DNA from: a virus
Lineage: Duplodnaviria > Caudoviricetes
IMG/VR virus record: IMGVR_UViG_3300040960_002552
Location: 1 to 52,189 of that record
Length of the DNA stretch: 52,189 nt
Strand: one strand, 5' to 3'
The notes under the pieces are model-generated. The model made no database searches, had not been told where the DNA came from, and saw only the letters and a list, made by a program, of their open reading frames with translations. Shown here piece by piece: positions 3,779 through 22,937 of the stretch. Within the stretch, counting starts at the first letter, position 1. Each line of letters opens with the position of its first letter. A program made the translations under genes and the position numbers.

Positions 3779-3808
3779 GTTGCATTTATAAATAAAAATT
3801 GAAAACGA

Positions 3809-4024: not shown

Positions 4025-4091
4025 GGAAGGACATTGCGCCCACCACGGAGAGTTTTATGAAAAATTGAAGAATGTATTTTAGAAATTTCGC

Positions 4092-4325
4092 ATGGATTTA
4101 AAATATGGTCCGTTGAGAGACAAGATACTCAAAGAATTGAGTGATGGGGAAGTTCTCACTTCCAAAGAAATAGAAGAGAAGGTTGCTTGGCCCAAAAAAA
4201 CCAACATAGTAAAAACCTTGTCAGATTTGAAAATAGACTTGGTGGTTAGAAAAGACTCAAGAAAGTTGTTGAAAATATTCCCCGAAAAAGCTAGGGGTCA
4301 GTTTAAATGGAGATTAGTAAAATGA
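4092..4325 (+). CDS. Hypothetical protein, possibly winged-helix-like
   Basis: 77 aa, basic, ILKELS...LTSKEIEE; ATGA overlap with the next gene. Confidence 0.5.
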   Translation: MDLKYGPLRDKILKELSDGEVLTSKEIEEKVAWPKKTNIVKTLSDLKIDLVVRKDSRKLLKIFPEKARGQFKWRLVK

Positions 4326-5194: not shown

Positions 5195-5221
5195 AAACAA
5201 CAAAACAAAACAAAAACAAAA

Positions 5222-5857: not shown

Positions 5858-6027
5858 GCTACGACATTGAACTCGTCAAGGAACACGTAGCCAACATCGA
5901 GGCTGTGCGTTCCGAATTAGAACAGAAACTCGATGAACTTGAAGCCGCTAAAGAACACTTGGAGACTGAACTCAAAAGACTAGGCGCAGCCCATCAAGTG
6001 CTTTCTGATTCGTTGGAAGAAGCATAA
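5854..6027 (+). CDS. Small coiled-coil protein (57 aa, not in ORF track)
   Basis: ATGA overlap; MSYDIELVKEHVANIEAVRSELEQKLDELEAAKEHLETELKRL... heptad pattern. Confidence 0.65.
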   Translation: MSYDIELVKEHVANIEAVRSELEQKLDELEAAKEHLETELKRLGAAHQVLSDSLEEA

Positions 6028-6043
6028 ACAACAAAAATAATAT

Positions 6044-6077
6044 AGGCTCCGCTCATTATGGGCGGAGTCTTTTTTTT
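6044..6077 (+). terminator. Rho-independent terminator
   Basis: aggctccgctc-attat-gggcggagtct stem followed by a T run. Confidence 0.75.
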
Positions 6078-6081
6078 ACTT

Positions 6082-6264
6082 ATGACAAATATTGAAGACG
6101 TTGATACAGATGAAATGATAGACTTCCTCCACTCGTTGGTAGAAGCCCTAGAACCCGACCCCGACCAGACAGAGCGTTTAATCGGGTTCTTAGAGGAGGA
6201 GAGCATCCTCTTGGAATACTGGACAGATGAAAACGATGTCTTTTGTTGTGGGAAGCAAAAATGA
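6082..6264 (+). CDS. Small acidic hypothetical protein
   Basis: MTNIEDVDTDEMID...; ATGA overlap with the polymerase gene. Confidence 0.55.
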   Translation: MTNIEDVDTDEMIDFLHSLVEALEPDPDQTERLIGFLEEESILLEYWTDENDVFCCGKQK

Positions 6265-8021
6265 AAACATACGCGCTGGACTTTGAGTCCTACTACGACA
6301 AGGAATGCTCCATATCTGTTCTGGGACCGCTAGGTTATTTCTCTCACCCAGACTTCGATGCTTACATGGTGAGTGTTGTAGGAGATGACGGATATGTTTA
6401 TGTGGGACACCCGAAAGAGTTTGATTGGAGTATCCTAGAAGGAAATAGAGTTCTGTCACACAACGCCGCTTTTGATGAAACCCTTTACCTTTTCGGCATT
6501 GGGATGAAGTGGTGGGATGAAGTGGACTACGCGGAATGGCACTGCACTGCTGATATGGCAGCGTATTGTGGGCATCCAAGGAACTTGAAGGGGGCTTCAA
6601 AAGCTGTCTTAGGGATAGATCTAAGTAAAGAAACCCGCGACACAATGAAGGGGCAGAAGTGGGACGGTATGGACTCTTTATTCAAAGAAGAGGTTCTGGA
6701 ATACGCCACTAAAGACTCCGAGTATTGCTTGGCTCTTTGGCAGAAACTTGAACCCCTGTGGCCGAAAAAGGAAAGAGAGATCAGCGTTATGAATCGGAAA
6801 GCAGCCCAGGGAGGTATCCCAGTAGACTCCGACTACATTGAGGAGTGTATCGCTACCCTCAATAAAGAACTTTTTTTGGCCGAACAAAACATCCCCTGGA
6901 TTGGGGAGAAGAAACTTTTATCGAGAGCGGCCTTTAACGATGAGTGCAGGAAGAACGGGCTAGTCCCCCCTGCATCACTGGCGAAAGATAATGAAGAAAC
7001 CGAACGCTGGTTTCGCGCCCACAGTAAAAAGTTTCTTTGGATCGGGGCAACTAGGAACTGGAGACGAATAAATGCGCTCAAGAAAAAAATGTTATCCTTC
7101 CGGGCCGCTACTATGCAGAATGGAAGATACTACGGGGGGTTGATGTATTGGGGGGCGCACACGGGAAGATTCAGCGGCAGCGGCGGGAACCTAAACCTTC
7201 AGAACATGCCGCGTGGTGAACTGTTCGGGGTAGACATGAGGAAAGTAATCTGCGCCCCAAAAGGAAAAAAACTCGTAGTGGTTGACTTATCACAGATCGA
7301 AGTTAGAACATTATCCTGGTTGTCGGGGGACTCAGGGATGCTAAAGAGAATCGAGGAATCAGATGACATCTACGAAGCGTTCGCTATCCAGTTTGGGCTG
7401 TGGGACGAGTCGAAAGGGTCTTTGAAAAAGGAAGACCCTTCTCTCAGGCACACCGTAAAGACGATGGCTCTTGGATGCGGCTACGGAGTGGGGGCGAAAA
7501 GATTTAGTGAGTTTAGCGGAACAACAGAAAAAGAAGCCGCTAAGTCTGTAGCACTCTACCGGAGCAGCCTCCCTAAAGTAACTAGGTATTGGAGGGACTT
7601 AAATGATTCTTTGAATGTTGCTTATGATTCAGAATGCCCTTTTGAAATCTCTTTGCCTTCTGGCAGGAAACTTAGATATGGGAGTTTGTATTCCAATAAA
7701 ACATCTAGGGGGATAGAGCTAGTAGCCAAAATTACAAAAGGGTCAAACAAAGTCGCTATGAAACTTTGGGGTGGGATTTTAGCGGAAAACGCCGCCTCTG
7801 CATTGGCGAGGGATATTTTCACTGACGCGATGCTCCGAATCAGAAAAGAAGGATATTGGATACTGTTTCACGTCCACGATGAGGTGGTCGTAGAGGTGGA
7901 CGAAGACAAAGCTGAGAAGGCTCTGGAGGACATAACTAGGATATTATCCACGCCACCAGAGTGGATTTCAAAGATTCCACTTGAAGCCGAGGGAAAAATA
8001 CTGCAAAGATACGAAAAATGA
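6261..8021 (+). CDS. polA: Phage family A DNA polymerase with 3'-5' exonuclease
   Basis: ALDFE exo I, HNAAFD exo II, HTGRFSG, NLQNMP, DLSQIEVR motif A, RHTVKTMALGCGYG motif B, VHDE motif C. Confidence 0.95.
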   Translation: MKTYALDFESYYDKECSISVLGPLGYFSHPDFDAYMVSVVGDDGYVYVGHPKEFDWSILEGNRVLSHNAAFDETLYLFGIGMKWWDEVDYAEWHCTADMAAYCGHPRNLKGASKAVLGIDLSKETRDTMKGQKWDGMDSLFKEEVLEYATKDSEYCLALWQKLEPLWPKKEREISVMNRKAAQGGIPVDSDYIEECIATLNKELFLAEQNIPWIGEKKLLSRAAFNDECRKNGLVPPASLAKDNEETERWFRAHSKKFLWIGATRNWRRINALKKKMLSFRAATMQNGRYYGGLMYWGAHTGRFSGSGGNLNLQNMPRGELFGVDMRKVICAPKGKKLVVVDLSQIEVRTLSWLSGDSGMLKRIEESDDIYEAFAIQFGLWDESKGSLKKEDPSLRHTVKTMALGCGYGVGAKRFSEFSGTTEKEAAKSVALYRSSLPKVTRYWRDLNDSLNVAYDSECPFEISLPSGRKLRYGSLYSNKTSRGIELVAKITKGSNKVAMKLWGGILAENAASALARDIFTDAMLRIRKEGYWILFHVHDEVVVEVDEDKAEKALEDITRILSTPPEWISKIPLEAEGKILQRYEK

Positions 8022-10195
8022 GATACATCAAAAACCTGAGAGATAAAGAAGCCCGAAACATTGAACCAAGTAAACTCCCGAAGAATAAACCGAACTTCAA
8101 AAGTAAAGCGGAGTTTAGGGATTGGAGTTCCTCCGTGGACACTGACCACGCCTTCATTAGTATGTGCGAGGGAGATACCCCTGGAGAGAGAGTTTCAAAC
8201 AGCAACCACGTCAATAGAGTATTGGGGTTCATTGCAGACTATGATGCCCCAGTAGATTGGGATGTCGCAGAGATACAAATAAATGATACGACTCCCTACG
8301 CTCCGAAGTGGATTTGCAAAACCTTCAGTGGATACGCCAGGGCTATTTGGGAGTTTGAAGAGCCGCTCCCCATTGATAAAAACCTTTATGACACCTTCAT
8401 AAGAGAGATTGGCAAAGCCACGAAAGCACAGCGATTGCTGGCGGGGTTCGATGATTGCGCTTTCAAGCCTAACCAATATTTTGAAGCGGGAGAAGATTGG
8501 AAAGAAATAGGCAAGCCCCTGCCCTGCTCCGTTATTCATGCGGCTCTTAACAGAGCGATCCAGAAGAAACCAATCGTAGCGTCAGACATCACAGTCCCGC
8601 TCGATGTTATTGCCGAAAAAGTAGAAGAAGTCTTCCCCGGTAGGTGGTTAGGGGACTTCGAAATCGGGGCGCGAGGTCCACTATTCTGGATAGGGGATGG
8701 GATCAACCGCGAAGGTTGCCAAGTCGGAGAAGATGGAATGATCTGCTACAGCGACAGGGCAGGAAAAGGGTTTGTGTCGTGGAGAGACATCTTCGGTTCT
8801 GCTTTCATTGAGAAATATGAGGAGAAGAAAATTGCAGTGGTCCTCGATGACTACTGGTTCAATGGGAGGTCATTTTACAAGCTGCTGCACGGGTGTGCTG
8901 TTACAATACCGAAGGACCAGTTAATTCTGGAGCTTAGACAAAAGGGGTTCTCGACAAAAACCAAGAAAGGGCAGTCCATCTCTGAAGTGGATTCGGCGGT
9001 ATTGATGGTCAGCAACCAAAACCGCGTAGACGAAATTGCACCAGTTGTCTTCTCAAACGAGAGGTTAGTGACCTATAATGGACACCGAATCCTTAACAAC
9101 GCATCCAATAAAGCAATCCAGCCAGCGGACTCAGGCGACCCAAAAAATTGGCCCTTCCTACACGGGTGGCTTTCCCAACTGTTCAGCCCAGCGGAGGACA
9201 GACCAGCCACAGATTACTTTTATTCTTGGATGAAGCGTTTCTATGATGCGGCCTTAAACTTCAAGTTCCAGCAGGGGCAAGCACTCCTCTTAGTGGGAAT
9301 GACTAACAAAGGGAAGTCACTGCTTTCTAACCGGGTGATCGGGGATTTGGTTGGGGGATTCGCTGACGCGAGCGACTATTTGAGCGGACACACCAAATTC
9401 AATAAAGACCTGGGCAGGTCAGCGGCCTGGGTAATTGATGACACGGTTAGTGCGGCATCTTTTGAAGACCAACGAAAAGCCACTGAGCTTATCAAGAGAG
9501 CAGTAGCCAACCCAAGAATCGAGTATCAAGCGAAGTATGCCGACACGCTTTCAGTCCCGTGGACGGGCAGGGTGATTATGTCTCTGAACATGGATGCGAA
9601 TAGTCTCACAGTTATCCCCGCGCTTGACTCATCAAACCGGGATAAGATTATGGCACTCCGTATTTCAGATTTCGCAACGAGTGATTTCCCCCCTAGCCAT
9701 GACCTTGAGCAAACTATTGAAATGGAACTCCCTCACTTTGCAAAATTTCTTCTTGATTGGCAGATCCCGCAAGAACTAAATGATTTCAGCAGGTTCGGAG
9801 TTGACTCATTCATTGATGAATCAATCGTCTCTGCCGCATACGACAACTCAAGTAGAAGTGCTATCGCAGAGCTTGTAGAGTTCTTTGTAGAGAAATACAG
9901 AGACGCAGAAAACTTAGATGACGAATCTTGGAGGGGGACATTGACGAACTTCCAAGTCCTAGTGCATGAATTTAACAACGGACGTTCTGTTGGTATGTCA
10001 CAAAACCTAGAGTTTGTTCGAAGAGGGTTTTGTGCTATGGAAGAAGCTCATAAAGCCAACCCAAGACTGCGCCCGATAAAATCTTCGGGACATGGTGGGG
10101 GAAAGAAGTGGACAATAGATTTAAGTCCAAAATATGACATAGACAATTACTTGTCCTTCAATGATTCTGAAATAGACACAAACGAACCCTTCTAA
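8018..10195 (+). CDS. Primase-helicase (PrimPol-like N-terminus, SF3/D5-like C-terminal ATPase)
   Basis: ADYD motif in the N-terminus; LLLVGMTNKGKS Walker A, KFN, WVIDD Walker B, AKY. Confidence 0.8.
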   Translation: MRYIKNLRDKEARNIEPSKLPKNKPNFKSKAEFRDWSSSVDTDHAFISMCEGDTPGERVSNSNHVNRVLGFIADYDAPVDWDVAEIQINDTTPYAPKWICKTFSGYARAIWEFEEPLPIDKNLYDTFIREIGKATKAQRLLAGFDDCAFKPNQYFEAGEDWKEIGKPLPCSVIHAALNRAIQKKPIVASDITVPLDVIAEKVEEVFPGRWLGDFEIGARGPLFWIGDGINREGCQVGEDGMICYSDRAGKGFVSWRDIFGSAFIEKYEEKKIAVVLDDYWFNGRSFYKLLHGCAVTIPKDQLILELRQKGFSTKTKKGQSISEVDSAVLMVSNQNRVDEIAPVVFSNERLVTYNGHRILNNASNKAIQPADSGDPKNWPFLHGWLSQLFSPAEDRPATDYFYSWMKRFYDAALNFKFQQGQALLLVGMTNKGKSLLSNRVIGDLVGGFADASDYLSGHTKFNKDLGRSAAWVIDDTVSAASFEDQRKATELIKRAVANPRIEYQAKYADTLSVPWTGRVIMSLNMDANSLTVIPALDSSNRDKIMALRISDFATSDFPPSHDLEQTIEMELPHFAKFLLDWQIPQELNDFSRFGVDSFIDESIVSAAYDNSSRSAIAELVEFFVEKYRDAENLDDESWRGTLTNFQVLVHEFNNGRSVGMSQNLEFVRRGFCAMEEAHKANPRLRPIKSSGHGGGKKWTIDLSPKYDIDNYLSFNDSEIDTNEPF

Positions 10196-10820: not shown

Positions 10821-11606
10821 TCATGAGGAATTAGTTAGGGATAATAGTCTAGTCCTATACTCAGGCATAGGCATTGATAGGGAACCACCAGGATCTACCT
10901 TTCTTCCAGGCGAAACTTCATCGTGACCAAGGATGTAGGGGACTTGGAAACAATCGTATTGGTCCCACAACCACAGTAAAAGTTTAGTTAAACTATTTTC
11001 CTGCTCCTTGGTAAACTTGTAGTAATACCCTGGAGCAATGTTTTTGTTTTTTCTTACTTCTAAGCGACACTTATCTTCGGGGTAAGGCTCAGTCCGGTCG
11101 AACCAAGCGGTCTTGCGTTTGTCCAAATGACCTGGACATATAACCTCGATACCGACCACTCTGTTGGAAACGTAAGACCCCAGCCCGTCGTAGTAACTTT
11201 TCCCCGCGTGATACCCCCACTGATTCAGTGGGAAGTTTTGTCCAACATTCCCTTCTTCGTCGATTACAAAATAGGTGAACCCCTGCCTTGCCTGATAAGA
11301 CAAAGCGGACTTTAGGCTCTGGTTTTCTCTACCAGCCGTCCAGTGGACGATTGCGCCCTCTGGCCCACCACTTGGATACCTCCCTCTTGTCTTAGACGGG
11401 GTAAAATTTGTCTCTGCTTGGGGATACCACAAAGACCGCTGGTTGGATCTCTTAGATTCTTTACTACTAAGAGAGATAGAGTTATCGCGATCAACTGCTG
11501 CTGACTCACCCAACAAACGGTTAACTACTCTCAGTGCTTTAGCGTGGCTATCGCTTGTCCAGTTTTTAAGATGCCACCGGAGCGTATATAGATCATTCTT
11601 GTTCAT
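10821..11606 (-). CDS. Endolysin, N-acetylmuramoyl-L-alanine amidase (Amidase_2)
   Basis: IVHWTAG, YHAG.S, SN..VGIE, ILGHDEVSPGRKVDPG. Confidence 0.9.
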   Translation of the reverse strand: MNKNDLYTLRWHLKNWTSDSHAKALRVVNRLLGESAAVDRDNSISLSSKESKRSNQRSLWYPQAETNFTPSKTRGRYPSGGPEGAIVHWTAGRENQSLKSALSYQARQGFTYFVIDEEGNVGQNFPLNQWGYHAGKSYYDGLGSYVSNRVVGIEVICPGHLDKRKTAWFDRTEPYPEDKCRLEVRKNKNIAPGYYYKFTKEQENSLTKLLLWLWDQYDCFQVPYILGHDEVSPGRKVDPGGSLSMPMPEYRTRLLSLTNSS

Positions 11607-12859: not shown

Positions 12860-13033
12860 TTACTCTTTTTCAGCTTTCTGGCGGACAGACCAGACGATAC
12901 CAATAAGCGTGATAATACTACCAACCGCTTCAAGCATCATCTGTTCATCGAGGCCAATGCCCTTAGTGACCAAAAGCCCCCCGGAAAAAGTGAGAAGGTG
13001 GCGTACGACTCCTAGAATGGATTCTTTATTCAT
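12860..13033 (-). CDS. Putative holin
   Basis: 57 aa, two hydrophobic segments, ILGVVRHLLTF.GG...IVWS..K pattern, charged C-terminus. Confidence 0.7.
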   Translation of the reverse strand: MNKESILGVVRHLLTFSGGLLVTKGIGLDEQMMLEAVGSIITLIGIVWSVRQKAEKE

Positions 13034-13090
13034 GTGGTTTTTTGTGTTTTTGGGTTTTGTCGTTTTGAATTTATTCAAAACATAAATTGG

Positions 13091-13447
13091 TTATAGTATG
13101 TTTACTACTCTGGAAGCTGCCCCACCGAAAGGCTCTATGTTCATTTCGGGTTTCACCATGCCACGGTAGGCACTCTTTTCTTGATCTAGCAACGCATTGC
13201 AGACGTTCCAGTGGTAGTCAGCGCGTTGAACATCTGCGTTGTCTTCTGCTACCGTAGCTAAAAGACCATGTTTAATAGCATTTACGTTAGAAAGATAGAC
13301 AATATCATCGTCGTTAAAGAGCGTCTCAAACCCACGCTTTAAAAGAACAAACACTGATTTGTCTGAACTAGATGGGTTGGAGAGCCGAAACCTACGGTAT
13401 CGAGCTACTTCGTTTCCTCTACCTTTCGCTAATGTGAGAGTCGCCAT
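13091..13447 (-). CDS. Virion/tail-associated protein, probably the C-terminal half of the upstream gene
   Basis: In frame with 13469-14257 and separated from it only by TAG plus 7 sense codons. Confidence 0.7.
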   Translation of the reverse strand: MATLTLAKGRGNEVARYRRFRLSNPSSSDKSVFVLLKRGFETLFNDDDIVYLSNVNAIKHGLLATVAEDNADVQRADYHWNVCNALLDQEKSAYRGMVKPEMNIEPFGGAASRVVNIL

Positions 13448-13468
13448 ATTAATAATAGTATCTTTTTC

Positions 13469-14257
13469 CTACGGTGGTGCGGGTGAGCTTGATGAGCTTG
13501 ATGAGCTTGATGAGCTTGATGAGCTTGATGAGCTTGATGAACTTGATGAACTTGATGAACTTGATGAACTTGACGCACTTGACGAGCTTGACGAGCTTGA
13601 TGCACTTGACGAGCTTGATGCACTTGACGAGCTTGATGCACTTGACGAGCTTGAACTTGAACTTGAAGAACTCGACTCAGCGTCTTCCACTGCTTGAACT
13701 TCTACTTTTTCATAAAAGCCTTTGAACCGTATCTCCAATACAGAAACTGCTTTTGTGGCGTGAGGCTCCGTAGTTATCATGCTCGCGCTCCCATCCAACA
13801 CGAACTCATGGACTTTCTTAGATCCATCCGACCTCTCGTAAGTTACGAACACAGACCCTTCAGAGGGGAGTGCCGTCCGGGGCGTGATGGGAACAACCTT
13901 TATCTGATAAAGAGAAGACTCGTTTAAGTCAATAATAGTAGGGTGTAAACCGTCATCGACAATTCCGTAAACTGGGCCTGGACCCCCCGAATAAAGGCCA
14001 GAGGTCTTGTAGTCTTGCCACCTAGCCCTCATATCACTAGGTAAGTTATCAACCACAGCAGATAGCACGGACTCCGCGTTTTCTGGTAGAGAAAAGTATT
14101 CGTGGTCTGTTACGATAGTCCTTTCAAACACCAAATCTCTCCAGTATCCCAAACCATATAGTCTGGGGAGAACTTGATTCAAATAAGGCAAAAACTGAGA
14201 TTCAGACTCAAGATAGCTTGAGAGAGTGGTTTTTAAGGTAGCTACGGTAACTGCCAT
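13469..14257 (-). CDS. Virion/tail (adaptor-like) protein ending in a poly-Ser tail
   Basis: ATG at 14257 directly below a sigma70-like promoter; YLNQVLPRLY...W start; about 64-residue Ser tract at the C-terminus. Confidence 0.7.
   Translation of the reverse strand: MAVTVATLKTTLSSYLESESQFLPYLNQVLPRLYGLGYWRDLVFERTIVTDHEYFSLPENAESVLSAVVDNLPSDMRARWQDYKTSGLYSGGPGPVYGIVDDGLHPTIIDLNESSLYQIKVVPITPRTALPSEGSVFVTYERSDGSKKVHEFVLDGSASMITTEPHATKAVSVLEIRFKGFYEKVEVQAVEDAESSSSSSSSSSSSASSSSSASSSSSASSSSSSSSASSSSSSSSSSSSSSSSSSSSSSSSSSSSSSPAPP
13484..13675 (-). repeat. 9-bp tandem repeat encoding poly-Ser
   Basis: gatgagctt / gatgaactt / gatgcactt / gacgagctt units on the + strand. Confidence 0.95.
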
Positions 14258-14262
14258 AGGGC

Positions 14263-14291
14263 ATTCTAACGGCAAAACCCCTTTTATTCAA
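14263..14291 (-). promoter_or_regulatory. Sigma70-like promoter, probably giving a leaderless mRNA
   Basis: TTGAAT-17 bp-TAGAAT, 5 nt above the ATG at 14257. Confidence 0.65.
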
Positions 14292-14422
14292 GTCAGAAGC
14301 CTAATCAGAATATAGGGCTAAATCAAATTATTAGGGGGTTTCGGGGGTATTGCTACACTATGGGTGAATTTTCTTGAAAATAATCTAATCTTCTATTAGA
14401 GGTCAGTAGTAATTTAATTGAA

Positions 14423-15424
14423 ATGAGAAAAATAATATTCCAAAACAAACTTAGCTTAGGGGATGTCGTGGTATGCACCGCAGCAATTCGTGACCTCCAT
14501 CGTGCGTATCCAGGGGAATTTAAAACAGGTTACACAGGAACCGCGCCAGAACTATTTAAGAATAACCCCCACATAGAAAATTTTAATGATACGGGGGGAG
14601 TTGAGACAATAGTATTAAAATACCCCGCAATCAACACAAGCAATCAACGCCCCCTACACTTCATTGGGGCTTACCATGAGTTCTTGGAAGAAAAGCTCTA
14701 CCTTAAAATCCCCGTAACAGAGTTCAAGGGCGACATCCATTTGTCCGATGAAGAGAAGGGGTGGACGAACCAAGTTCAAAACATCACTAAATATGAGGTT
14801 CCTTTTTGGATTATAGTTTCGGGCGGTAAGTATGATTTTACTTGTAAGTGGTGGGATCACAAAAAGTATCAACAAGTGGTCGATTCTCTAAAGGGGGAGA
14901 TACTATTCGTGCAAGTAGGGTCTGATAACCACCACCACCCTCCCCTCAAAGGGGCGATTGATTTAAGGGGGAAAACCGATGTCAGGCAGCTAGTCAGACT
15001 CGTCTACCATAGTTCTGGAGTCGTGTGTCCGGTTACAGGAATTATGCACATGGCAGCAGCGGTCCCCACAAAGCAACCGGGGTCTACAAGACCTTGTGTA
15101 GTGGTCGCAGGAGGCAGGGAGCCAGTTTCTTGGGAACATTACCCCCCTCACCAGTTCCTCCATACACAAGGGATGCTGGACTGTTGTAAAAAAGGTGGGT
15201 GTTGGAAGTCTAGGGTGGAGCCTAGAAATGACGGGTCTAAGCAAGACTCCTGCCTGTGTAGCTTACCTGTTATCCCCGAGGGAGGGGGAATTGCCGTCCC
15301 TAAGTGTATGGACATGATCTCCTCCGACGACGTTGTGAGGTCAATAAGAAAATATATCGAAGGGGGAGCTTCCCCGACTGTTAACGATATAATTTGGTCT
15401 GGGGTGAAGCAGCACCTTACTTAA
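14423..15424 (+). CDS. GT9-family (heptosyltransferase-like) glycosyltransferase with Cys-rich C-terminal insert
   Basis: LGDVVVCTAAIRDL, KWW...YQQVV, IDLRGKT, TGIMHMAAA; CC...CW...CLC...CMDMIS. Confidence 0.85.
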   Translation: MRKIIFQNKLSLGDVVVCTAAIRDLHRAYPGEFKTGYTGTAPELFKNNPHIENFNDTGGVETIVLKYPAINTSNQRPLHFIGAYHEFLEEKLYLKIPVTEFKGDIHLSDEEKGWTNQVQNITKYEVPFWIIVSGGKYDFTCKWWDHKKYQQVVDSLKGEILFVQVGSDNHHHPPLKGAIDLRGKTDVRQLVRLVYHSSGVVCPVTGIMHMAAAVPTKQPGSTRPCVVVAGGREPVSWEHYPPHQFLHTQGMLDCCKKGGCWKSRVEPRNDGSKQDSCLCSLPVIPEGGGIAVPKCMDMISSDDVVRSIRKYIEGGASPTVNDIIWSGVKQHLT

Positions 15425-15579
15425 ACGGACCCAGAGGTTTTCGGAGATCCATGACTGCTGCTACTGCTGCTACTGCTGCTACTGCTGCTACTGCTGCTAC
15501 TGCTGCTACTGCTGCTACTGCTGCTACTGCTTCCACTGTCGCTGCCTCCATACCCTCCTCCACTGCTACTATCGCTCAT
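15421..15579 (-). CDS. Ser/Gly micro-protein (52 aa, not in ORF track)
   Basis: MSDSSSGGGYGGSDSG(S)n HGSPKTSGSV; ATG lies 5 nt after the stop of 15585-16241. Confidence 0.65.
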   Translation of the reverse strand: MSDSSSGGGYGGSDSGSSSSSSSSSSSSSSSSSSSSSSSSSSHGSPKTSGSV

Positions 15580-15584
15580 ATTAT

Positions 15585-16241
15585 CTATTCGTCTGGGTAA
15601 GCTGAGTTAATGAACTTCTCGTTATGTATAAATTGATTCTCAGTTCTATCAGGGAATCTAAGGTTTCGGAACCCTTTGCGAATCCCACTCAGACGAACGC
15701 AAACTCTTTTGGGCCTCATGAACAAGGGGAGAGACAAGATTATTTCTTGACCCTCAACCCTGGCGTATTTCACACCCCCTGAGTCCCCGATAGCAGAAAT
15801 TACCCTAACCGTATCTGGCTCACACACTTCTAAAAATTTTTCATCTAGCGGGGTCTTACTAAACCTCTTAGTAGGAAAAATCTCTACGTGGTCATCAAAG
15901 CGAACTTCCGGCATCTCAGCAATAAATAAAGCGGCATACCCTGTTTCATTCCAAGAACAAGGGACGATAGCGGTGGACTTAGAGCTACTACTACTGCTGC
16001 TAGGGGGGCTACTACTGCTACTACTACTACTACTTTCTTCGCTAAATATAAAAGCAGGGTCATTTAAATATAAACCTATCGGGGAAAAATCAGAAATGGG
16101 GTTGTCGGGCCAAGGCCCAACCTCTATGGGTCCATACAGCAGATCCGGGTTAGGTATCTGAGTTTCTACCCCAGTTAAGTCCCCAAAAGACTCTTCGGGT
16201 GGGGGTGCGTTCACCTGGGGATACTGAAAATCTTCGGCCAT
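15585..16241 (-). CDS. Virion-region protein with internal poly-Ser linker
   Basis: Acidic Pro-rich N-terminus, EESSSSSSSSSPPSSSSSSSK linker, globular C-terminal domain. Confidence 0.7.
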   Translation of the reverse strand: MAEDFQYPQVNAPPPEESFGDLTGVETQIPNPDLLYGPIEVGPWPDNPISDFSPIGLYLNDPAFIFSEESSSSSSSSSPPSSSSSSSKSTAIVPCSWNETGYAALFIAEMPEVRFDDHVEIFPTKRFSKTPLDEKFLEVCEPDTVRVISAIGDSGGVKYARVEGQEIILSLPLFMRPKRVCVRLSGIRKGFRNLRFPDRTENQFIHNEKFINSAYPDE

Positions 16242-16245
16242 TAAT

Positions 16246-17511
16246 CTACGGGTAGACTCCGTTCAGTTGAAGTTCCGTAGACTCAACGATAAACATATCG
16301 AGGCTTGTTTGTCTTACGGACACATTTATCAAATAATCTCCAACTAAGTCAGTCCCGTTAAAGCCCGACGTAGCGGCTAACGAGGTAGGCTGAATGTTTC
16401 GTTCAATATTTAAGCCAGTAGGTGCGGTAGAAGATCCGTTAGTAGTTCCGTTTATACCAACAGTAATCGCTCCGTGTATAGCAGCAGGGAGAGTGAACTG
16501 CCTAGCAGATGCTTGTGCAACAGGAGGGTTAGTGCTATATGCGGCATACTTGTAAGATATGTCTTGTCGTTTTGGACGGGGTAGCAACGTCGAAGAGGAC
16601 AATATGGAGTTTACTTTTGTTTCTGGGTTTGTAGTTAGGGTTCTTTCGATTTTTGTTTTGAAAGGTCCAGAAGAGGGGGCGGTAACCGGGAACTCTGCCG
16701 TGCTGTCTTCACTATATTGCCCTATGTTATCCCCATTAGAATTAGACCCCGTAACCCAAGCAGAAACAAAATCAAAATCTACTGAGTCTAGTCTCTGAGG
16801 AATTCCTTCATACTTTTGAGATCCATAAATAGTCTCAAGATCTCTGTCGGCAATGGTTCCCCCACTATCCTTAATACTCTGATTAATAAGCACATCGTGA
16901 AAATTATTTCCGTGTCTTACTTCATTAGTGTCCCCTGGAGAGTTAGTGATACCTGCGCCCTCAAGGGTATATCCCGAAGGAACGACGGTCTTAGTTACCT
17001 TGATGTTTCCCTCTAGGTTTGCATCATACACGTAATCAACCGTTTGTGGAACTACAAATCTTCTTTGGACTGCTATGTAAATTCCAGATAAAGGATCTCC
17101 CACGCTTTTAATGGTATCCCCCACAAACCCATAGTCTGTAAACACGCTGTCTACTGTTCCGCCGGATGGGGGAGTCAAAGAAGACGGGTAATCGCTCCTT
17201 TTGATGATGTAAGTTCTAGTAAGCTCAGAACCATCCCGAAGCTCGTAATTATACGAATCCTGTGAGTCCCTAGTGGCTGCGTAATAATACCTGTAAAGCT
17301 GCCCCTCCGAACTGTCTTGCTGCACGTAGACAAGTTCATGATTGGGCCATTTAGTAGAGTCGGGATGGCTAGTTCCGTAAGCGGGTATATTCTTCCCCAC
17401 TCTCTGAGTATCTACCGTCTCATAAAATAGAATGTCAGCTACGTTAGGGCTGACAAAAGTAAGAACTCTTTGTCTTTTGGGAGCAGGTTGATTTCCAAAA
17501 TTGACGGGCAT
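16246..17511 (-). CDS. Putative tail/virion structural protein
   Basis: 421 aa, rich in Thr/Ser/Gly/Val, located in the late module. Confidence 0.6.
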   Translation of the reverse strand: MPVNFGNQPAPKRQRVLTFVSPNVADILFYETVDTQRVGKNIPAYGTSHPDSTKWPNHELVYVQQDSSEGQLYRYYYAATRDSQDSYNYELRDGSELTRTYIIKRSDYPSSLTPPSGGTVDSVFTDYGFVGDTIKSVGDPLSGIYIAVQRRFVVPQTVDYVYDANLEGNIKVTKTVVPSGYTLEGAGITNSPGDTNEVRHGNNFHDVLINQSIKDSGGTIADRDLETIYGSQKYEGIPQRLDSVDFDFVSAWVTGSNSNGDNIGQYSEDSTAEFPVTAPSSGPFKTKIERTLTTNPETKVNSILSSSTLLPRPKRQDISYKYAAYSTNPPVAQASARQFTLPAAIHGAITVGINGTTNGSSTAPTGLNIERNIQPTSLAATSGFNGTDLVGDYLINVSVRQTSLDMFIVESTELQLNGVYP

Positions 17512-17523
17512 ATCTAATCTATA

Positions 17524-17751
17524 TTAAGGCTGATAAGAACCCGATGAACTCGATGAACTCGATGAACCCGATGAACTCGATGAACTCGATGAACCCGATG
17601 AACTCGATGAACCCGAAGGACTCGATGAACTCGATGAACCCGATGAACTCGATGAACTCGATGAACTCGATGAACTCCCCCCACCTCCCGCGTTTCCAAT
17701 TAGTGTGGGGTTATCAACCCCATACAGAGTATTAGCTTTAGTCAACTTCAT
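17524..17751 (-). CDS. Ser/Gly micro-protein (75 aa)
   Basis: MKLTKANTLYGVDNPTLIGNAGGGG then a Ser tract with SG dipeptides; own putative promoter. Confidence 0.7.
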   Translation of the reverse strand: MKLTKANTLYGVDNPTLIGNAGGGGSSSSSSSSSSSSGSSSSSSPSGSSSSSGSSSSSSSSGSSSSSSSSGSYQP

Positions 17752-17765
17752 TTCTCGTTGTGTTT

Positions 17766-17794
17766 AGTTTCCCCCTTTTCTACAAGAAGTGCAA
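17766..17794 (-). promoter_or_regulatory. Putative promoter
   Basis: TTGCAC-17 bp-GAAACT; same -10 variant as the capsid promoter. Confidence 0.45.
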
Positions 17795-17796
17795 GT

Positions 17797-18555
17797 CTAA
17801 ATGTAGTAAGGCAAGGGGCTTCCATCCTCTATTTGGCGGATAAATTCTCTCATCATAGGGTGTTCCCTATACTTCTCCCACCTCGTCTGTCCTGGGGAGG
17901 GGGGCTTTCCAAAAGATGAACCTCCTCCGTGCTTAGACTCTTTGTCCATTCCTAAGTTGTGAAACTGAATACCCAATTTAGTAGCCTTGGACCTCCTGTA
18001 TTCTTCACTACTAATCCAGTTCTCAAATTTAACTGCGGTGGTTTTCGGAGGGAGCGGGGTGTATTTGCGGTAGTGTTTTAGCATCTTGTAATAACCTGAT
18101 GGGTCAGTCCCAGTCATCCATTCCCCCCAAACTTTCAATGTATCCTCAGAGATAGAAAACTGAGATTTTGGCTGTTCCAGCCTAGCCAGCCTTGATGCAA
18201 ACACATCTTTTAAATCTCTAGTTACAAATACGTTTACCGAATCCACTCCAGTATCTAGCTCCCTAACCCATTTTGCCGCATCCCACTCTTCAAAACCCAA
18301 AACTAATGTCCCCGTTAATTTATCCAAAGGAGTCCTACAAGATTCTGGTAAGTCAGGCATTTCATTTCCTAAGTTAAACCGATTCCCTTTTATATCTGGC
18401 GAAGAATTTACAAAGTTCAAGTAAGTGAGTTGGTCTTCTCCCTCCTCGATTAAAGATGCAATTATCCAGTTCGTAATTGCATGAAGCCCTGACCTTTGAA
18501 GGCCAAATACTCGATACTCCCTTCGATGTTCAAACTTGATGTCCCTTATGTCCAT
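17797..18555 (-). CDS. Sulfotransferase-like protein
   Basis: VFGLQRSGLHAI (5'-PSB-like loop), VTRDLKDVFASR (3'-PB-like), VKFE, GGGSSF. Confidence 0.7.
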   Translation of the reverse strand: MDIRDIKFEHRREYRVFGLQRSGLHAITNWIIASLIEEGEDQLTYLNFVNSSPDIKGNRFNLGNEMPDLPESCRTPLDKLTGTLVLGFEEWDAAKWVRELDTGVDSVNVFVTRDLKDVFASRLARLEQPKSQFSISEDTLKVWGEWMTGTDPSGYYKMLKHYRKYTPLPPKTTAVKFENWISSEEYRRSKATKLGIQFHNLGMDKESKHGGGSSFGKPPSPGQTRWEKYREHPMMREFIRQIEDGSPLPYYI

Positions 18556-18570
18556 GTTATAGTTTTCCCC

Positions 18571-19227
18571 ATGATAGTAAACATACTAGAAGATAATCAT
18601 AATATTTCAAAACCATTTAGGGATAAACTAGGCGTCAGTTCGCTAAAATCTAAGCGGATAGAAACTAATAACGCGATGGCTCTCACATCAGCGAGATTAT
18701 CAGAAGTTGCTTGTCTTCTAGCTAAGAAATATAAAATAGACTGCATCATCGAGACGGGAACTTTTCTGGGAAGGGGGACCACAACTTCTTTTGCTTTCAC
18801 AGGACTAGATGTTCACTCTTGTGAGACTAACTGGGTGTCTTACAATAAGGCTCTGGAAAACGTAGGATACCTACCTCATGTGTTCCTCAATCACGCGAAC
18901 TCCCTAGAACGAAAAGACATACCCAGCAACTGGGTTGAGAGAATACAAATTCAAAATGTAGCGGAAGAAGAAAACTGGCTGTCTAAAATACTCCAAGAGA
19001 AAAAAGACCAGCGTGTTATGGTAGGACTTGACTCAGGTGGACCTAACGGACAAAAGGAACTAGGCGTTATCTTAGAAGCTGCAAAAAGAGAGGGCAATAT
19101 AAAATGCCTTATTCTAGACGACCTCGATAGGATCAAACACAAGGAGTCCCCGAAGAGACTGCGTGATGAACTTGGTATAGACGTATATCAAGTCGAGGCG
19201 AGATGGGGCTTCGCAATAATTGACTAG
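18571..19227 (+). CDS. Class I SAM-dependent methyltransferase-like protein (copy 2)
   Basis: IIETGTFLGRGT, LDS, ILDD; 218 aa; start set by alignment to 2596-3252; TGnTATAGT ends 7 nt upstream. Confidence 0.75.
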   Translation: MIVNILEDNHNISKPFRDKLGVSSLKSKRIETNNAMALTSARLSEVACLLAKKYKIDCIIETGTFLGRGTTTSFAFTGLDVHSCETNWVSYNKALENVGYLPHVFLNHANSLERKDIPSNWVERIQIQNVAEEENWLSKILQEKKDQRVMVGLDSGGPNGQKELGVILEAAKREGNIKCLILDDLDRIKHKESPKRLRDELGIDVYQVEARWGFAIID

Positions 19228-19261
19228 GGGTTAGCTCCCGCGAACTACCGATCTAACTTTC

Positions 19262-19564
19262 TCAGTTAGCCCGACTGATATTATCTAAGTGCTTCTCAAT
19301 AGCTGAGAACAATTCGGCGCGTTGCTTCTGCTCTTCTGCTTCAATAGTCCTACGATGGAGTGCATCTGCCTCTAGGAAACCTACCCGGTCTTTGTAGCTG
19401 CTGAGTTCCCGCTCAATAGAGGCGAATCGAGCATCAACTTGATCTTGATACTCGCCCCATAGTAGCCAGGAGCAAACACCCAAGACAATGGCGAGTCCGA
19501 AGTAATTTACGGCCCAACGAAGTAGTTCGGGCTTTACCTCAGATACGGCTTGCGCCCAACTCAT
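19262..19564 (-). CDS. Membrane-anchored coiled-coil protein
   Basis: One TM segment (YFGLAIVLGVCSWLLW) followed by a helical region. Confidence 0.65.
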   Translation of the reverse strand: MSWAQAVSEVKPELLRWAVNYFGLAIVLGVCSWLLWGEYQDQVDARFASIERELSSYKDRVGFLEADALHRRTIEAEEQKQRAELFSAIEKHLDNISRAN

Positions 19565-19584
19565 GTCAGTCCCTCCTAGTTCCC

Positions 19585-19848
19585 TTAATTAACTGCTTTG
19601 TAAGCAATCACTGACCCAGTGTGGACGGTGAAGGATTTGATGCTTCCCAAGATAGTAAAACCAGCGGGGAAATGGACGTTGGAGTCAATGGTGTCTCCAT
19701 CCAGCGCATCCATCGTAATAGAAGTAAACTTGGTGTTACTGGTGACGCACTGAATAGCGCAGTATTCTCCACTGACTGGGCTTCCCGTCGTGCTAACGAA
19801 AGTTGCGCCGCCCCTACCTGCTGATTGTTTTTCGATGTCGTTTGTCAT
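19585..19848 (-). CDS. Small beta-rich virion-region protein
   Basis: 87 aa, FPAGFTILG...TGSVIAYK. Confidence 0.65.
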   Translation of the reverse strand: MTNDIEKQSAGRGGATFVSTTGSPVSGEYCAIQCVTSNTKFTSITMDALDGDTIDSNVHFPAGFTILGSIKSFTVHTGSVIAYKAVN

Positions 19849-19859
19849 GTTATCTAAAC

Positions 19860-20177
19860 TTAATACTTAGACGCGTTTTTTTCAACAGCTATAAGGAATC
19901 CCATAGGGCCGTCGTCGCTGTCGTAAACTCCGTCGTCTTCTTCCATAGACTCTCGTTCTTTCTGGCTGTTAACTACATAGTCGCGAACCGAATCAACGTA
20001 AGCGTTAGACAACGTAACTTTAGATTGAACCCATGCTTGGGATAGGAGAGAGCAGTTGGGGTGTTTATCTAAGTGCCTAAGCAGATCCACTACGTTAGCG
20101 TGGATGTTGCGAAGCTGCTGCTCCGCCATCTCCAGATCCTTAACTTCCCCATGATCTTTCTTGTCTGCGTAGTTCAT
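19860..20177 (-). CDS. Hypothetical protein
   Basis: 105 aa, AWVQSKVTL...YVDSV.DY motif; coupled to the upstream gene. Confidence 0.65.
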   Translation of the reverse strand: MNYADKKDHGEVKDLEMAEQQLRNIHANVVDLLRHLDKHPNCSLLSQAWVQSKVTLSNAYVDSVRDYVVNSQKERESMEEDDGVYDSDDGPMGFLIAVEKNASKY

Positions 20178-21136
20178 TACATATAGTCCCTGTAGATTTT
20201 AAGTGCTAGCTGGTTGTCTGTGAGGCCAGGATTTTCAGCTTTCGCTTTTTTCAAGATCTCCATTTTGCCTTTATCCATAGAAGACACGGGATCGAAGGAA
20301 CTGCCCATGATCATCTTAAACAGGCGACCTGCTTCCTCCTCATTCATATCTGGGACAGGCTCTGCGCGTGGTGTAAGCTTTGCGCGTGGTATAGGCTCTG
20401 CACGGAGTGTAGGCTCTTTGAATAAGGAGTCAGCTTTCTCAGCCGCTTCCTGCTCCACCCCTTGACGAGACTCGTAGTCACCTATACTCTCCTCAAATGC
20501 TTCCTCAAACCCAGCATCCGCGTCTCTTAGGCTTTTCTTGTAGCCCTTCCTTTCAGCTTTCTTCTCAGCCATTTCCTTGTCTTCTCTTGTGGCCCTAGCC
20601 CTAGTATTTCTTAGCTCACGCTCCAGAGATTTTTGGGTAGCTCTATTACGATCATTACGAGCGGCTCGCATAGCCTCTGGGTCGATTCCACCTAGCTCTC
20701 TCTGCAACTGCGCTGTATCGGAGTCTGCAACTGCTTGTTGTTCTGCGAGCCTTTTCTCTACCGCTTCGGTCATGCTCAACCCATATTCCGTTGGGTCATC
20801 TCTCACTTCAAACATACTACCCGCAGGAGCGGACGGGACATTTTCCCCTCTCTTTATCTCTCCCTGCCGAATGTCAAAGCGTTTTTGTTCCTCCGCTTTA
20901 ACCATTTCAGCCAGTGCCTTGAGTCGTTCTTCCGCTATCTTTTTATCAGCGGCATACCTTTCCCGCCCTTCTCTAGTCCCCATAAGGTAGGCGAAGCGTC
21001 CTGATTCTTTTTGAGCTACATCAGGGTTAAATGTTCTAGTTTGAGACTGTTCTTCAACAAAGTTAGTGAGACTATCTGAGTCCAAACTGTTGAGTTTCTC
21101 TTGGATTCGCTTCTTTTGAGCAGTAGTGAAAGACAT
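20177..21136 (-). CDS. Charged helical hypothetical protein
   Basis: ATG at 21136 (MSFTTAQKK); Glu/Arg/Ala-rich. Confidence 0.7.
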   Translation of the reverse strand: MSFTTAQKKRIQEKLNSLDSDSLTNFVEEQSQTRTFNPDVAQKESGRFAYLMGTREGRERYAADKKIAEERLKALAEMVKAEEQKRFDIRQGEIKRGENVPSAPAGSMFEVRDDPTEYGLSMTEAVEKRLAEQQAVADSDTAQLQRELGGIDPEAMRAARNDRNRATQKSLERELRNTRARATREDKEMAEKKAERKGYKKSLRDADAGFEEAFEESIGDYESRQGVEQEAAEKADSLFKEPTLRAEPIPRAKLTPRAEPVPDMNEEEAGRLFKMIMGSSFDPVSSMDKGKMEILKKAKAENPGLTDNQLALKIYRDYM

Positions 21137-21151
21137 AATAATAGATAGTGA

Positions 21152-21190
21152 TTTTACAGGTAGCCCCATAACAGAGGCTACCTGCAAAAA
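21152..21190. other. Intergenic inverted repeat (stem-loop)
   Basis: ttttacaggtagcc ... ggctacctgcaaaa; no U-tract after the stem. Confidence 0.5.
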
Positions 21191-21192
21191 GT

Positions 21193-21381
21193 TTAGCTGA
21201 ATGTTACGCCGAGGGCTTCTCCAAGCTCCTGGACAGAGATAGTCTTAACCTTCTGCTCAGAGACATCAAAAACTTGAACGAGGTCTGCTCGCGCAACTTT
21301 TTCGGTGTCTGAAACGTCAGCGGTTGTGAGGTCGTCACCCGCAAGGGTTTCGATGGTTGGTGCGTCGTCTAGAGTAGGCAT
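21193..21381 (-). CDS. Small acidic protein after capsid (possible decoration protein)
   Basis: 62-aa ORF directly downstream of the major capsid gene. Confidence 0.65.
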   Translation of the reverse strand: MPTLDDAPTIETLAGDDLTTADVSDTEKVARADLVQVFDVSEQKVKTISVQELGEALGVTFS

Positions 21382-21407
21382 GGCATACTTAGGGTTAGCT
21401 ATAGCAA

Positions 21408-21434
21408 GAGAGGGGTGGGATTACCACCCCCCTC
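21408..21434 (-). terminator. Stem-loop after major capsid gene
   Basis: gagaggggtgg-gatta-ccacccccctc; weak U-tract. Confidence 0.5.
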
Positions 21435-21449
21435 AAACTAAGCGGGTTA

Positions 21450-22745
21450 TTACGCAGCGGGAGTTGTGGATGTCCGCTTGAACAAGATGACAAAACCGAA
21501 GTCGGTCTTGATTGGCTTCGTCGCGCTGGCGAGAACGCCACGGAAGAAACCGATAGTGCCATCGGGGTTGGTGATCTCGTTAGGGATGTTCGTCCACTTG
21601 AAGTCACCACGGTAGCTAACAGGATCGAAGGAGATACCTTGCGCTCCGCTGAACGGATTCGGGATCTGAGACTCACAAACGTGTGGGTGGATCACGAAAG
21701 CTGCTTCATATTCAGCAGAATCGTAAGCACTGTTTGGAGTGGTCACACCACTGGAAACCGTGTAAGGAAGAACGCGGGTAATCTGATCCGTATTCGCCAG
21801 AGTGAAGCGAGGAGCGAGGTCATCGACAAGGTGATAGAAACCACGGAAGGATTTCTCAACACCGAGGGGTGCGATGAGGTCGCTTACCTTGCTGTTGTTG
21901 TAACGAACATCGTCGCGGAAACCTGCTTCAGTCTGAAGCTGGTAGGAAGCCTCAGAACTCAGCACAAGGCCAAACACGGGGCGTCCGTTCTCACGACCAT
22001 AAGCCTCGCTACCTGCACCCTTGCGGACGAGGTTGAAGTAAGACTTATCGAGGAGAGCGTTAGAGATGTTGCTCGTTGGGACGGTGAAGGAACCAGCAGT
22101 GCCGAGATCGACTGTGCCAGTAAGCTCAGTGCCTTCAAAACCGGACTGAATAGCCGTTCCAGAAGCAACAGCACCGATGTAGCTGTCAGAGACTTTCGAG
22201 AACTCATCACGGTAGCGATTCTCCCAAGTGTATCGGGAAGACTCAGCCATGTTGTCCATGATAGCACGAAGCTGTTCCTGACGGTGAGCGGCGAATCGGA
22301 GGTCTTCCAGCGAGATGCGTGGAGACTCGATCACTGCGCGGTCGATGTTGTATTTTTTAAGCTGCTTGGAGAACTGAACATACGAACGATTGTCGGTAGC
22401 ACCAGTTCCGCGACCACCCTGGACATCATCAGCAGCGTCCTTGAGGGGCTGTCCGAGGTCAGAGGTGTCAAACGCATTAGCGGCAGCATTCAGAGTTCCG
22501 AGTGCAGACCAGTTAACACCAGCAGTATCACCAGCAGAGTCGGTAGTCGGGATAGCCCGGTCATAGACGAGGGTGCTGAGTTGATAGCCCATCCCGTCTG
22601 GGAAGGCAGTTTGCTTCATCAGATCCATCCATGCAGAAGTGTGGAGGGTCCGAGTGTATACGTCTTGGTTGATTCGGTTGGCTTCTTCAGCCAGAATCGT
22701 GTTAATTGCAGTGGTTCCTGCGGAACCGAGGTCAAATGTTGACAT
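21450..22745 (-). CDS. Major capsid protein
   Basis: 431 aa after portal and scaffold; own promoter and downstream hairpin; biased codon use. Confidence 0.8.
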   Translation of the reverse strand: MSTFDLGSAGTTAINTILAEEANRINQDVYTRTLHTSAWMDLMKQTAFPDGMGYQLSTLVYDRAIPTTDSAGDTAGVNWSALGTLNAAANAFDTSDLGQPLKDAADDVQGGRGTGATDNRSYVQFSKQLKKYNIDRAVIESPRISLEDLRFAAHRQEQLRAIMDNMAESSRYTWENRYRDEFSKVSDSYIGAVASGTAIQSGFEGTELTGTVDLGTAGSFTVPTSNISNALLDKSYFNLVRKGAGSEAYGRENGRPVFGLVLSSEASYQLQTEAGFRDDVRYNNSKVSDLIAPLGVEKSFRGFYHLVDDLAPRFTLANTDQITRVLPYTVSSGVTTPNSAYDSAEYEAAFVIHPHVCESQIPNPFSGAQGISFDPVSYRGDFKWTNIPNEITNPDGTIGFFRGVLASATKPIKTDFGFVILFKRTSTTPAA

Positions 22746-22937
22746 GGTAAGAAAAAATAATTTGGGGTTAGTCCAAACACCTATTTTTTAGATGCCTGTG
22801 TTGTCCAATCAAGGTTTCTTAGGACTGCTTATAAGGCCAGAACAACCACCTAGTTTGGTAAAAGTCGTAGTATTAATTTAAGTAATAGGACTAATTAAAG
22901 GCTAGAACAACCTACTTAAATTAAATTAACTTATAAA

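Follow-up and report, generated by a model that had tools for sequence, protein, structure and literature searches.

A GT9-like glycosyltransferase subfamily associated with poly-serine tracts in a tailed-phage contig and in bacterial genomes

Results

Four poly-serine tracts around a GT9-like gene

The tailed-phage record IMGVR_UViG_3300040960_002552 (Duplodnaviria; Caudoviricetes) is one linear contig, 52,189 bp long and by estimate 86% complete, and was analysed here over its whole length (hereafter, the window). Several open reading frames (ORFs) in its late region contain long runs of serine, and among them lies a gene for a glycosyltransferase of the GT9 type, together with genes for a sulfotransferase-like protein (ST252) and a methyltransferase-like protein (MT) (Table 1). 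An original prediction, made from the letters of the window, had proposed that these enzymes glycosylate, sulfate and methylate poly-serine virion proteins. The present report describes the association between the GT9-like enzyme and the tracts, in the window and in other viral and bacterial genomes, and the mechanism that this association suggests.

A six-frame scan requiring at least 10 identical residues per 12-residue window found exactly four Ser tracts, all of them on the minus strand inside ORFs and together spanning 4.2 kb (13478-17682) around the GT9 gene, which confirms the coordinates of the cluster that the original prediction had placed in the tail region. Over the 52,189 bases, the same scan found no further homopolymer-rich stretch except the Leu mirror frames of these four tracts. 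The claim that no comparable Ser tract occurs elsewhere thus holds at this cut-off, and a laxer one (8 of 10) adds one 10-residue stretch, in a 36-aa antisense ORF (3823-3930). Three tracts consist of 9-nt units repeated in tandem, perfectly or almost so (TCA TCA AGC, AGC AGC AGT and AGT TCA TCG); each unit encodes Ser-Ser-Ser, and the AGY and TCN codon families are mixed. Having different repeat units, the three arrays point to separate origins, yet serine is encoded every time. Ser-Gly dipeptides, the proteoglycan attachment sites to which the original prediction pointed, are absent from two of the tracts, which are pure poly-Ser and free of Gly.

Replication functions (helicase, PD-(D/E)XK nuclease, family-A DNA polymerase and D5-like primase-helicase) occupy the plus strand at 116-10195, and the minus strand carries a block that begins near 27.3 kb and extends to 10.8 kb, where it closes with genes for small membrane proteins and the Amidase_2 endolysin. 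The tract genes and p421 lie within this block; the tract genes are all on one strand, flanked by a 431-aa protein, 96-100% conserved in relatives, and by the lysis genes. Within the late block, only GT9 and MT are on the plus strand. Their opposite orientation, which for GT9 recurs in six of six relatives, suggests inserted cassettes with their own expression; a promoter and terminator scan of 13000-19700 gave results at chance level. S1, S2, S3, S4, p421, g118, ST252 and MT had no family match in Pfam, PHROGs or NCBIfam, and PDB profile searches with the ST, MT, GT9 and p421 families and the 431-aa protein returned nothing significant. Window positions 13000-22800 matched no DNA in the GenBank phage collection, where tblastn likewise gave no match for the 431-aa protein, p421 or GT9 (50,697 records for GT9). 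In view of the lack of structural-family and GenBank phage matches, the labels 'virion' and 'tail' are drawn from gene order alone.

Table 1. Features of the window discussed in the text (positions on the 52,189-bp contig)
Feature	Position	Strand	Description	Ser tract
S1_268	13469-14275	-	200-aa N-terminal domain, then a C-terminal tail of about 68 residues with 60 Ser	13478-13681
S2_52	15421-15579	-	52-aa ORF, nearly all one Ser run (span 33 residues, 29 Ser)	15445-15543
S3_218	15585-16241	-	218-aa protein, Ser tract internal	15981-16043
S4_75	17524-17751	-	Conserved 25-aa head, then a 50-residue Ser/Gly tract with 41 Ser	17536-17682
GT9	14423-15424	+	GT9-like glycosyltransferase, 333 aa; Pfam PF01075 Glyco_transf_9, E 5.7e-9	
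ST252	17797-18555	-	Predicted sulfotransferase fold; hhalign against Sulfotransfer_3 PF13469	
MT	18571-19227	+	Class-I methyltransferase-like (Methyltransf_24 kind), 218 aa; divergent from ST252; hhalign against PF13578	
g118	13091-13447	-	Domain in the S1_268 frame; one TAG and seven codons between (13445-13471)	
p421	16246-17511	-	Conserved 421-aa protein, tract-free here	
Second MT copy	2596-3252	+	Between helicase and nuclease in the replication block; hmmsearch E 1.2e-118	
Amidase_2 endolysin	10821-11606		E 3.6e-15	

Judged from the reading frames, the tracts are tails and linkers at domain boundaries, a position in which they would be accessible to a soluble enzyme. The S1 domain and g118 form one protein with no intervening Ser tract at three loci of more distant relatives (L017/G008, L223 and L224); the ORF at 9026-10015 of L017, for instance, spans both S1 (51% identity) and g118 (51%). 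In the window, a 68-residue tract stands exactly at the S1/g118 junction, followed by a TAG codon and then by g118 in the same frame, and at another locus (L075) the tract joins the S1 domain to a different segment of 80 residues. Ser tracts do occur in some homologues of p421, where they link modules or form the C-terminal tail, and several homologues have Ser-rich tails. In those p421 homologues whose N-terminal module is duplicated, the linker is a Ser run in two (P0283, P0289) and Pro/Thr-rich in two (P0303, P0311). S4_75 lies in the frame of p421, separated from it by TAA and four codons (17509-17526), and by coordinate arithmetic the two are in frame in the window and in five of six relatives, these being inherited and non-independent cases. 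Read-through of the stop codons at S1_268/g118 and S4_75/p421 would give Ser-linked fusion proteins. The S2 micro-ORF starts 5 nt past the S3 stop, in a different frame, and overlaps the end of S3 by about 100 nt in three relatives (L004, L005, L007).

The GT9-like enzyme

The protein encoded between the tracts matches Pfam PF01075 over residues 77-217 with 36.1 bits (cut-off 22), as the original gene call had it. Its homologues number 2620 matches at 50-100% identity, those of Verrucomicrobiota, Planctomycetota and others lying at 50-57%, and most of the homologues listed have a precomputed PF01075 domain. An alignment of this subfamily has a nearly invariant N-terminal GD motif (G13 and D14), an invariant cluster of Cys residues in the C-lobe (C254, C255, C260, C279 and C295) and a subfamily-specific invariant block (GGREP..WE.YP.HQ; GGREP...CC..GGCWKSR). 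Against the PDB, the subfamily profile gave weak matches only, to WaaF (1psw) and to the GT9 structure 3tov. The profile alignment places the GD motif, whose Asp we take to be the GT9 catalytic residue, onto both structures, and the segment LRGKT..Q..L....G...PVTG.MH.AAA onto residues 243-280 of 1psw, which form the nucleotide-sugar helix. For the NCBIfam equivalogs of the lipopolysaccharide (LPS) heptosyltransferases I, II and RfaQ, which have cut-offs of 185, 467, 135 and 569 bits, the scores were 23.4, 18.4, 18.4 and 14.6, so that none applies.

Association of the GT9 subfamily with poly-serine tracts

Through the subfamily alignment, 160 loci were fetched, 80 of them viral (of 156 confirmed) and 80 bacterial (of more than 525). 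Of the 80 loci in each set, 31 viral and 43 bacterial ones contain a poly-Ser tract; no more than five loci per set have runs of G, T, A, P, E, D, K, N or Q. The Ser tracts concentrate near the enzyme: within 4 kb of GT9 they are found in 37/74 bacterial and 23/80 viral loci, and beyond 6 kb in 4/58 and 6/70, respectively. After dereplication at 80% GT9 identity, the corresponding counts are 28/60 and 16/53 within 4 kb, and 4/51 and 6/49 beyond 6 kb. In terms of density per 10 kb, the bacterial tracts number 2.4-2.8 up to 4 kb from GT9 and 0.1-0.6 between 5 and 10 kb from it. As a random control, 20-kb stretches were taken at even spacing, twenty in all, from three of the bacterial genomes represented among the loci; they contained 2 tracts in 400 kb. 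Taken together, these comparisons give good support to the view that the GT9 subfamily and poly-Ser tracts belong together, and the co-occurrence of tracts and GT9, which the original prediction had proposed to check in related phage genomes, is seen in the 160 loci set against the random control.

At many bacterial loci, a small or giant ORF with a Ser tract stands immediately beside GT9. In the cultured bacterium Caballeronia telluris LMG 22936 (L107), a methyltransferase gene, GT9 and an open frame of 656 residues that includes a Ser-rich region are adjacent. The tract-bearing neighbours are mutually unrelated: many belong to no family, and the others include RHS-repeat, Laminin_G_3, tyrosinase and collagen-like proteins. 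Clustering of the ORFs around GT9 found no partner family in common, the top clusters after GT9 being its own alternative frames. With no neighbour family in common, the tract itself is the shared element, and its occurrence beside GT9 in bacteria indicates that the system is not restricted to phages. The poly-Ser proteins beside bacterial GT9 genes are in many cases either giant proteins with RHS repeats (L103, L106, L110, L123, L139, L151) or proteins with lectin-type Laminin_G_3 domains (L112, L123, L128, L136, L158).

Phage relatives with and without GT9

Six viral contigs carrying p421 at 81-100% identity are close relatives of the window. All six encode GT9 (76-100% identity), always on the strand opposite to its neighbours, and all four tract slots are filled in them, except that the S1 orthologue of L007 lacks its tail. 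Orthologues of S1_268 occur in 6/6, as does a Ser-tract ORF in the S2 slot; orthologues of S3_218 (79-99% identical) are likewise found in all six, each bearing a tract, and the head of S4_75 is conserved in 4/6 by tblastn. The tracts vary in span among the relatives, S1 between 16 and 68 residues and S4 between 31 and 80, and their lengths differ even between the window and L002, the flanking proteins of which are 95.2-100% identical. An ST-family gene is present in every relative that covers the ST slot, belonging to one of two subtypes that share about 24% identity. Among the close relatives, MT of the window type stands beside ST only in L002 and L006, and the replication-block MT is the sole copy found in the loci of L011 and L012.

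Searching with the 431-aa protein gave two more distant relatives, G007, whose 60.5-kb genome has terminal repeats and is complete (62% identity), and G006, which is 61% complete (69% identity). In both, p421 has an orthologue, and so does S1, in fusion with g118. GT9 was found nowhere in either record, and neither ST nor MT families nor any Ser run longer than 6 were found in them (60,000 of the 60,507 bases of G007 were scanned). In the comparison of relatives with and without the enzymes, for which the original prediction had asked, the phage relatives that lack GT9 therefore also lack the tracts, possibly through one gain in the phage group. In another complete genome, G008 (80% identity), GT9 is present, and no more than 6 kb from it lie three genes for Ser-tract proteins and one of the Methyltransf_24 type.

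ST252, MT and their fusions to GT9

Profile comparisons point to a sulfotransferase fold for ST252 and a class-I methyltransferase fold for MT, in agreement with the gene calls of the original prediction. ST252 has 383 relatives. An alignment of 63 ST-family sequences, compared by hhalign with ten Sulfotransfer_3 (PF13469) reference domains from five bacterial genomes, gave a probability of 91.9% (E 7e-7, 112 columns), with three controls at 0.1-0.2%; only one of the 63 members matches Pfam Sulfotransfer_3 directly (E 0.0078). ST252 carries an RSG loop and an RDxxxxxxS motif (RDLKDVFAS; family consensus RDPxNLFAS), which we take to be, respectively, the 5'-phosphosulfate loop and the 3'-phosphate motif (RDPxxxxxS) for 3'-phosphoadenosine-5'-phosphosulfate (PAPS). 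Its residues R21, G23, R113, D114 and S121 are invariant or nearly so and collinear with PRSGTT and RDPvd..S of the references, and the extended ST alignment is collinear from the RSG loop through the C-terminus, including the C-terminal region that aligns to Sulfotransfer_3. The nine homologues of MT have no Pfam annotation. Compared with 15 PF13578 domains, MT gave 83.5% (E 8e-6, 130 columns; controls 0.2%), with IETGTFxGxGTT aligned on motif I (ExGxxxGxST). Language-model look-alikes, which serve as leads only, agree for both proteins (ST252 0.96, sulfotransferase; MT 0.91, methyltransferase). The two MT copies of the window are 67% identical (BLASTP 145/216).

A full-length GT9 and a full-length ST domain share one open frame at seven loci (four viral, two of these near-identical, and three from Verrucomicrobiales; L090 and L106 are examples), and all seven have poly-Ser tracts. 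Methyltransf_24-GT9 fusions occur at three loci, and 44 of the 160 loci have a Methyltransf_24-like gene, in many cases less than 50 nt from GT9. The set of GT9, ST and window-type MT recurs at the bacterial loci L106 and L165, the sole occurrences of this MT beyond the phage clade. A tract is present in 13/17 loci with ST and in 61/143 without, a tally in which many loci are close kin. These arrangements support a scheme in which the three enzymes would act on one substrate, and they uphold the earlier assignment of the ST and MT genes to the same system as GT9, through the fusions and through the three-gene set in unrelated bacteria. In a Verrucomicrobiales genome (G005:C1:2565970-2567249), Sulfotransfer_3 and Methyltransf_24 genes are adjacent far from the GT9 locus; ST and MT are adjacent in the window, too.

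Discussion

In exported proteins, long Ser-rich low-complexity segments at domain boundaries are familiar from the polyserine linkers of secreted glycoside hydrolases, and in the serine-rich repeat adhesins such segments are heavily O-glycosylated by the dedicated cytoplasmic enzymes GtfA/B (GT4), to which the GT9-like enzyme of the window is unrelated. We know of no GT9, sulfotransferase or methyltransferase partner for either the linkers or the adhesins. A literature search, covering titles and abstract openings, gave no paper suggesting that poly-Ser is paired with a GT9-like enzyme.

In comparison with characterised GT9-type enzymes, the bacterial autotransporter heptosyltransferases (BAHT) TibC and AAH appear to be the nearest mechanistic model. 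According to one account (eLife 2014, PMC4358343), these are soluble cytoplasmic enzymes that hyper-heptosylate Ser residues of autotransporters, TibC using host ADP-heptose as its donor and having an N-terminal beta-barrel of about 97 residues ahead of the catalytic domain and a four-Cys iron finger (CxxC...C...C) in the C-lobe. A dodecameric ring is a further feature of BAHT. BAHT and the phage enzyme have in common the GT-B/GT9 type, a Ser-rich partner encoded nearby and several Cys residues in the C-lobe, which in the phage enzyme may form a metal-finger-like insertion. Unlike TibC, the phage enzyme is barrel-less, since its GD motif at residues 13-14 of 333 leaves no room for such a barrel, and its Cys spacing is CCx4C...C...C; its putative acceptors are disordered homopolymer runs, whereas the TibC acceptor is a folded beta-helix. 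No PDB entry for TibC was matched by phmmer (E up to 1) or by profile hmmsearch (E up to 10). By sequence, then, the phage enzyme is not a member of the TibC/AAH group, and the comparison with TibC/AAH that had been made at the outset stands as an analogy of mechanism and fails as kinship. The phage enzyme resembles WaaC, WaaF and WaaQ (GT9, PF01075) in that it passes the Pfam cut-off and in that its GD motif and nucleotide-sugar helix align with 3tov and 1psw. It differs from the LPS heptosyltransferases in its equivalog scores, far under the cut-offs, in its own invariant Cys block and in its neighbours, which are poly-Ser proteins rather than LPS core genes. There is also precedent for phages that decorate their own particles: the mycobacteriophages Che8, Corndog and Myrna encode glycosyltransferases that act on their own capsid and tail-tube proteins, as summarised in PMC12363180. 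These phages belong to another group and have another host, and the passages on them that were consulted mention no sulfotransferase.

With these precedents in mind, we think it somewhat probable that a cytoplasmic GT9-like enzyme O-glycosylates the Ser tags and that ST252 and MT modify the sugar. According to this model, the soluble Cys-cluster enzyme would add sugars to the hydroxyls of long Ser runs, which four late-gene products of the same cytoplasm would display as tails or linkers or in the form of stand-alone micro-proteins. The sulfotransferase-fold enzyme, with PAPS as its donor, and the class-I methyltransferase, with S-adenosylmethionine, would then modify the attached sugar, and the product would be a dense, partly anionic, mucin-like brush. 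As 9-nt arrays are quick to grow and shrink, the size of such a brush would be variable among close relatives. No sugar-nucleotide or PAPS gene came up when the window's main ORFs were scanned with Pfam, so that the sugar and sulfate donors would have to come from the host. We infer four elements of this model: Ser as the acceptor, the identity of the sugar, the placement of sulfate and methyl groups on it, and the presence of the tagged proteins on the particle. Of the system as it was originally proposed, the gene association is upheld by the local enrichment, the common loss and the fusions; its chemistry, its location on the particle and the suggested shielding or mimicry belong to the interpretation.

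Several observations weigh against this model. The tagged proteins and the 431-aa capsid candidate match no known structural family. The LPS heptosyltransferases are the only characterised sequence relatives of GT9, so that its acceptor may be a lipid or LPS. No tract lies within 4 kb of GT9 in 57/80 viral and 37/74 bacterial loci, and within the phage group a single evolutionary event may have brought in both GT9 and the tracts. ST252 and MT have no direct Pfam match by hmmscan even at E 10, and the hhalign references were small and restricted to ORFs of matching strand and length, with one partial domain (L179) left out, the unrestricted versions giving 60.8% for ST and 0.3% for MT. The copy of MT among the replication genes weakens a role of MT in glycans only.

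Four other explanations were considered. The Ser runs may be merely flexible linkers and tails, comparable to those of secreted glycoside hydrolases, with GT9, ST and MT modifying the host envelope (LPS core heptose or polysaccharide), for example as a block to superinfection. The best characterised matches of GT9, the heptosyltransferases I, II and RfaQ (far below cut-offs) and WaaF 1psw, are in keeping with this, and so are the resemblance of GT9 and MT, on their opposite strand, to inserted accessory genes and the position of the tracts at domain junctions, as at S1/g118 and in the inter-module linker of p421, which is Pro/Thr-rich in other homologues. We nevertheless regard it as unlikely, because it leaves unexplained that tracts are limited to those phage relatives that have GT9, that they are enriched about 50-fold locally in unrelated bacteria, and that the neighbours of GT9 share only the tract. 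Another explanation, to which we would give slightly less weight still, accepts the tracts as the target of the enzymes but supposes a different chemistry, either direct sulfation of Ser or a tract that serves as a docking tag for a modification elsewhere on the protein. For ST and MT the support indeed reaches the folds and not the substrates, and a direct ST-GT9 fusion is compatible with any two-step chemistry on one substrate. However, two of the tagged products are almost pure tract, leaving little else to modify, and sulfotransferases and Methyltransf_24 enzymes that stand beside glycosyltransferases usually act on sugars.

That the tracts are neutral, slippage-prone repeats in a variable region, and the enzymes unrelated cargo, would fit with three tracts being perfect or near-perfect 9-nt arrays whose lengths vary between near-identical contigs. 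This we hold to be improbable, given that all four tracts are held in the Ser frame despite their different repeat units, that their positions are conserved in relatives down to 79% protein identity, that other homopolymers do not follow the same pattern, and that tracts and GT9 are lost together. It is more improbable still that GT9 and MT modify phage DNA, by glycosylated or methylated bases, rather than protein. A paralogue of MT does lie among the replication genes, and the glycosylation of phage DNA by phage glycosyltransferases is documented in two reports, by their titles and abstract openings (10.1101/2023.12.21.572611; PMC13326640). Among the window's main ORFs, the Pfam scans revealed no gene for a hydroxymethylase, a TET-like enzyme or base modification, and the modification of DNA would leave both the association with poly-Ser and the RHS and LamG neighbours in bacteria unexplained.

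If the glycosylation of Ser tags is extended to all the loci considered here, one may speculate about a widespread decoration system. According to this speculation, which we advance as a possibility and with more doubt than confidence, Cys-cluster GT9-like enzymes, often fused to ST or MT, would be at work in phages, Verrucomicrobiota, Planctomycetota, Acidobacteriota and some Proteobacteria and would equip unstable poly-Ser tags with O-glycans that are sulfated, methylated or both, giving phage particles a length-tunable, anionic, mucin-like coat and, in bacteria, decorating secreted proteins with RHS repeats or lectin domains. Were this the case, phages beyond the mycobacteriophages would sugar-coat their own proteins with simple Ser runs as the acceptor code, and a protein glycan of bacteria or phages would include sulfate added by an enzyme that is fused to the glycosyltransferase. 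Expansion and contraction of the repeats would offer a possible route to quick change of the particle surface, and the GT9 subfamily together with poly-Ser would be a sequence signature for glycoproteins in uncultured bacteria and viruses. The system would be compact and testable, with one enzyme of 333 aa and a substrate of 52 or 75 aa.

Other features of the window

No tRNA genes were found in the 52,189-bp window. A 3740-aa ORF on the minus strand (37734-48956) has PHROG matches to only two families, both without known function, and contains tandem repeats of 18 to 54 nt at 45661-45850; PHROG matches of small neighbouring ORFs were uninformative. Dense tandem repeats also occupy 29607-30075, in or beside an ORF at 29556-30095, with 24-nt units and units of about 10 nt resembling CACACACGCA; this repeat region falls in the most G+C-rich part of the window (0.586). 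On the plus strand, the gene at 31657-32526 is of the anti-restriction type: its product joins an ArdC-like N-terminal domain (Pfam E 1.5e-28) to a zincin-like metallopeptidase (Pfam E 3.2e-37).

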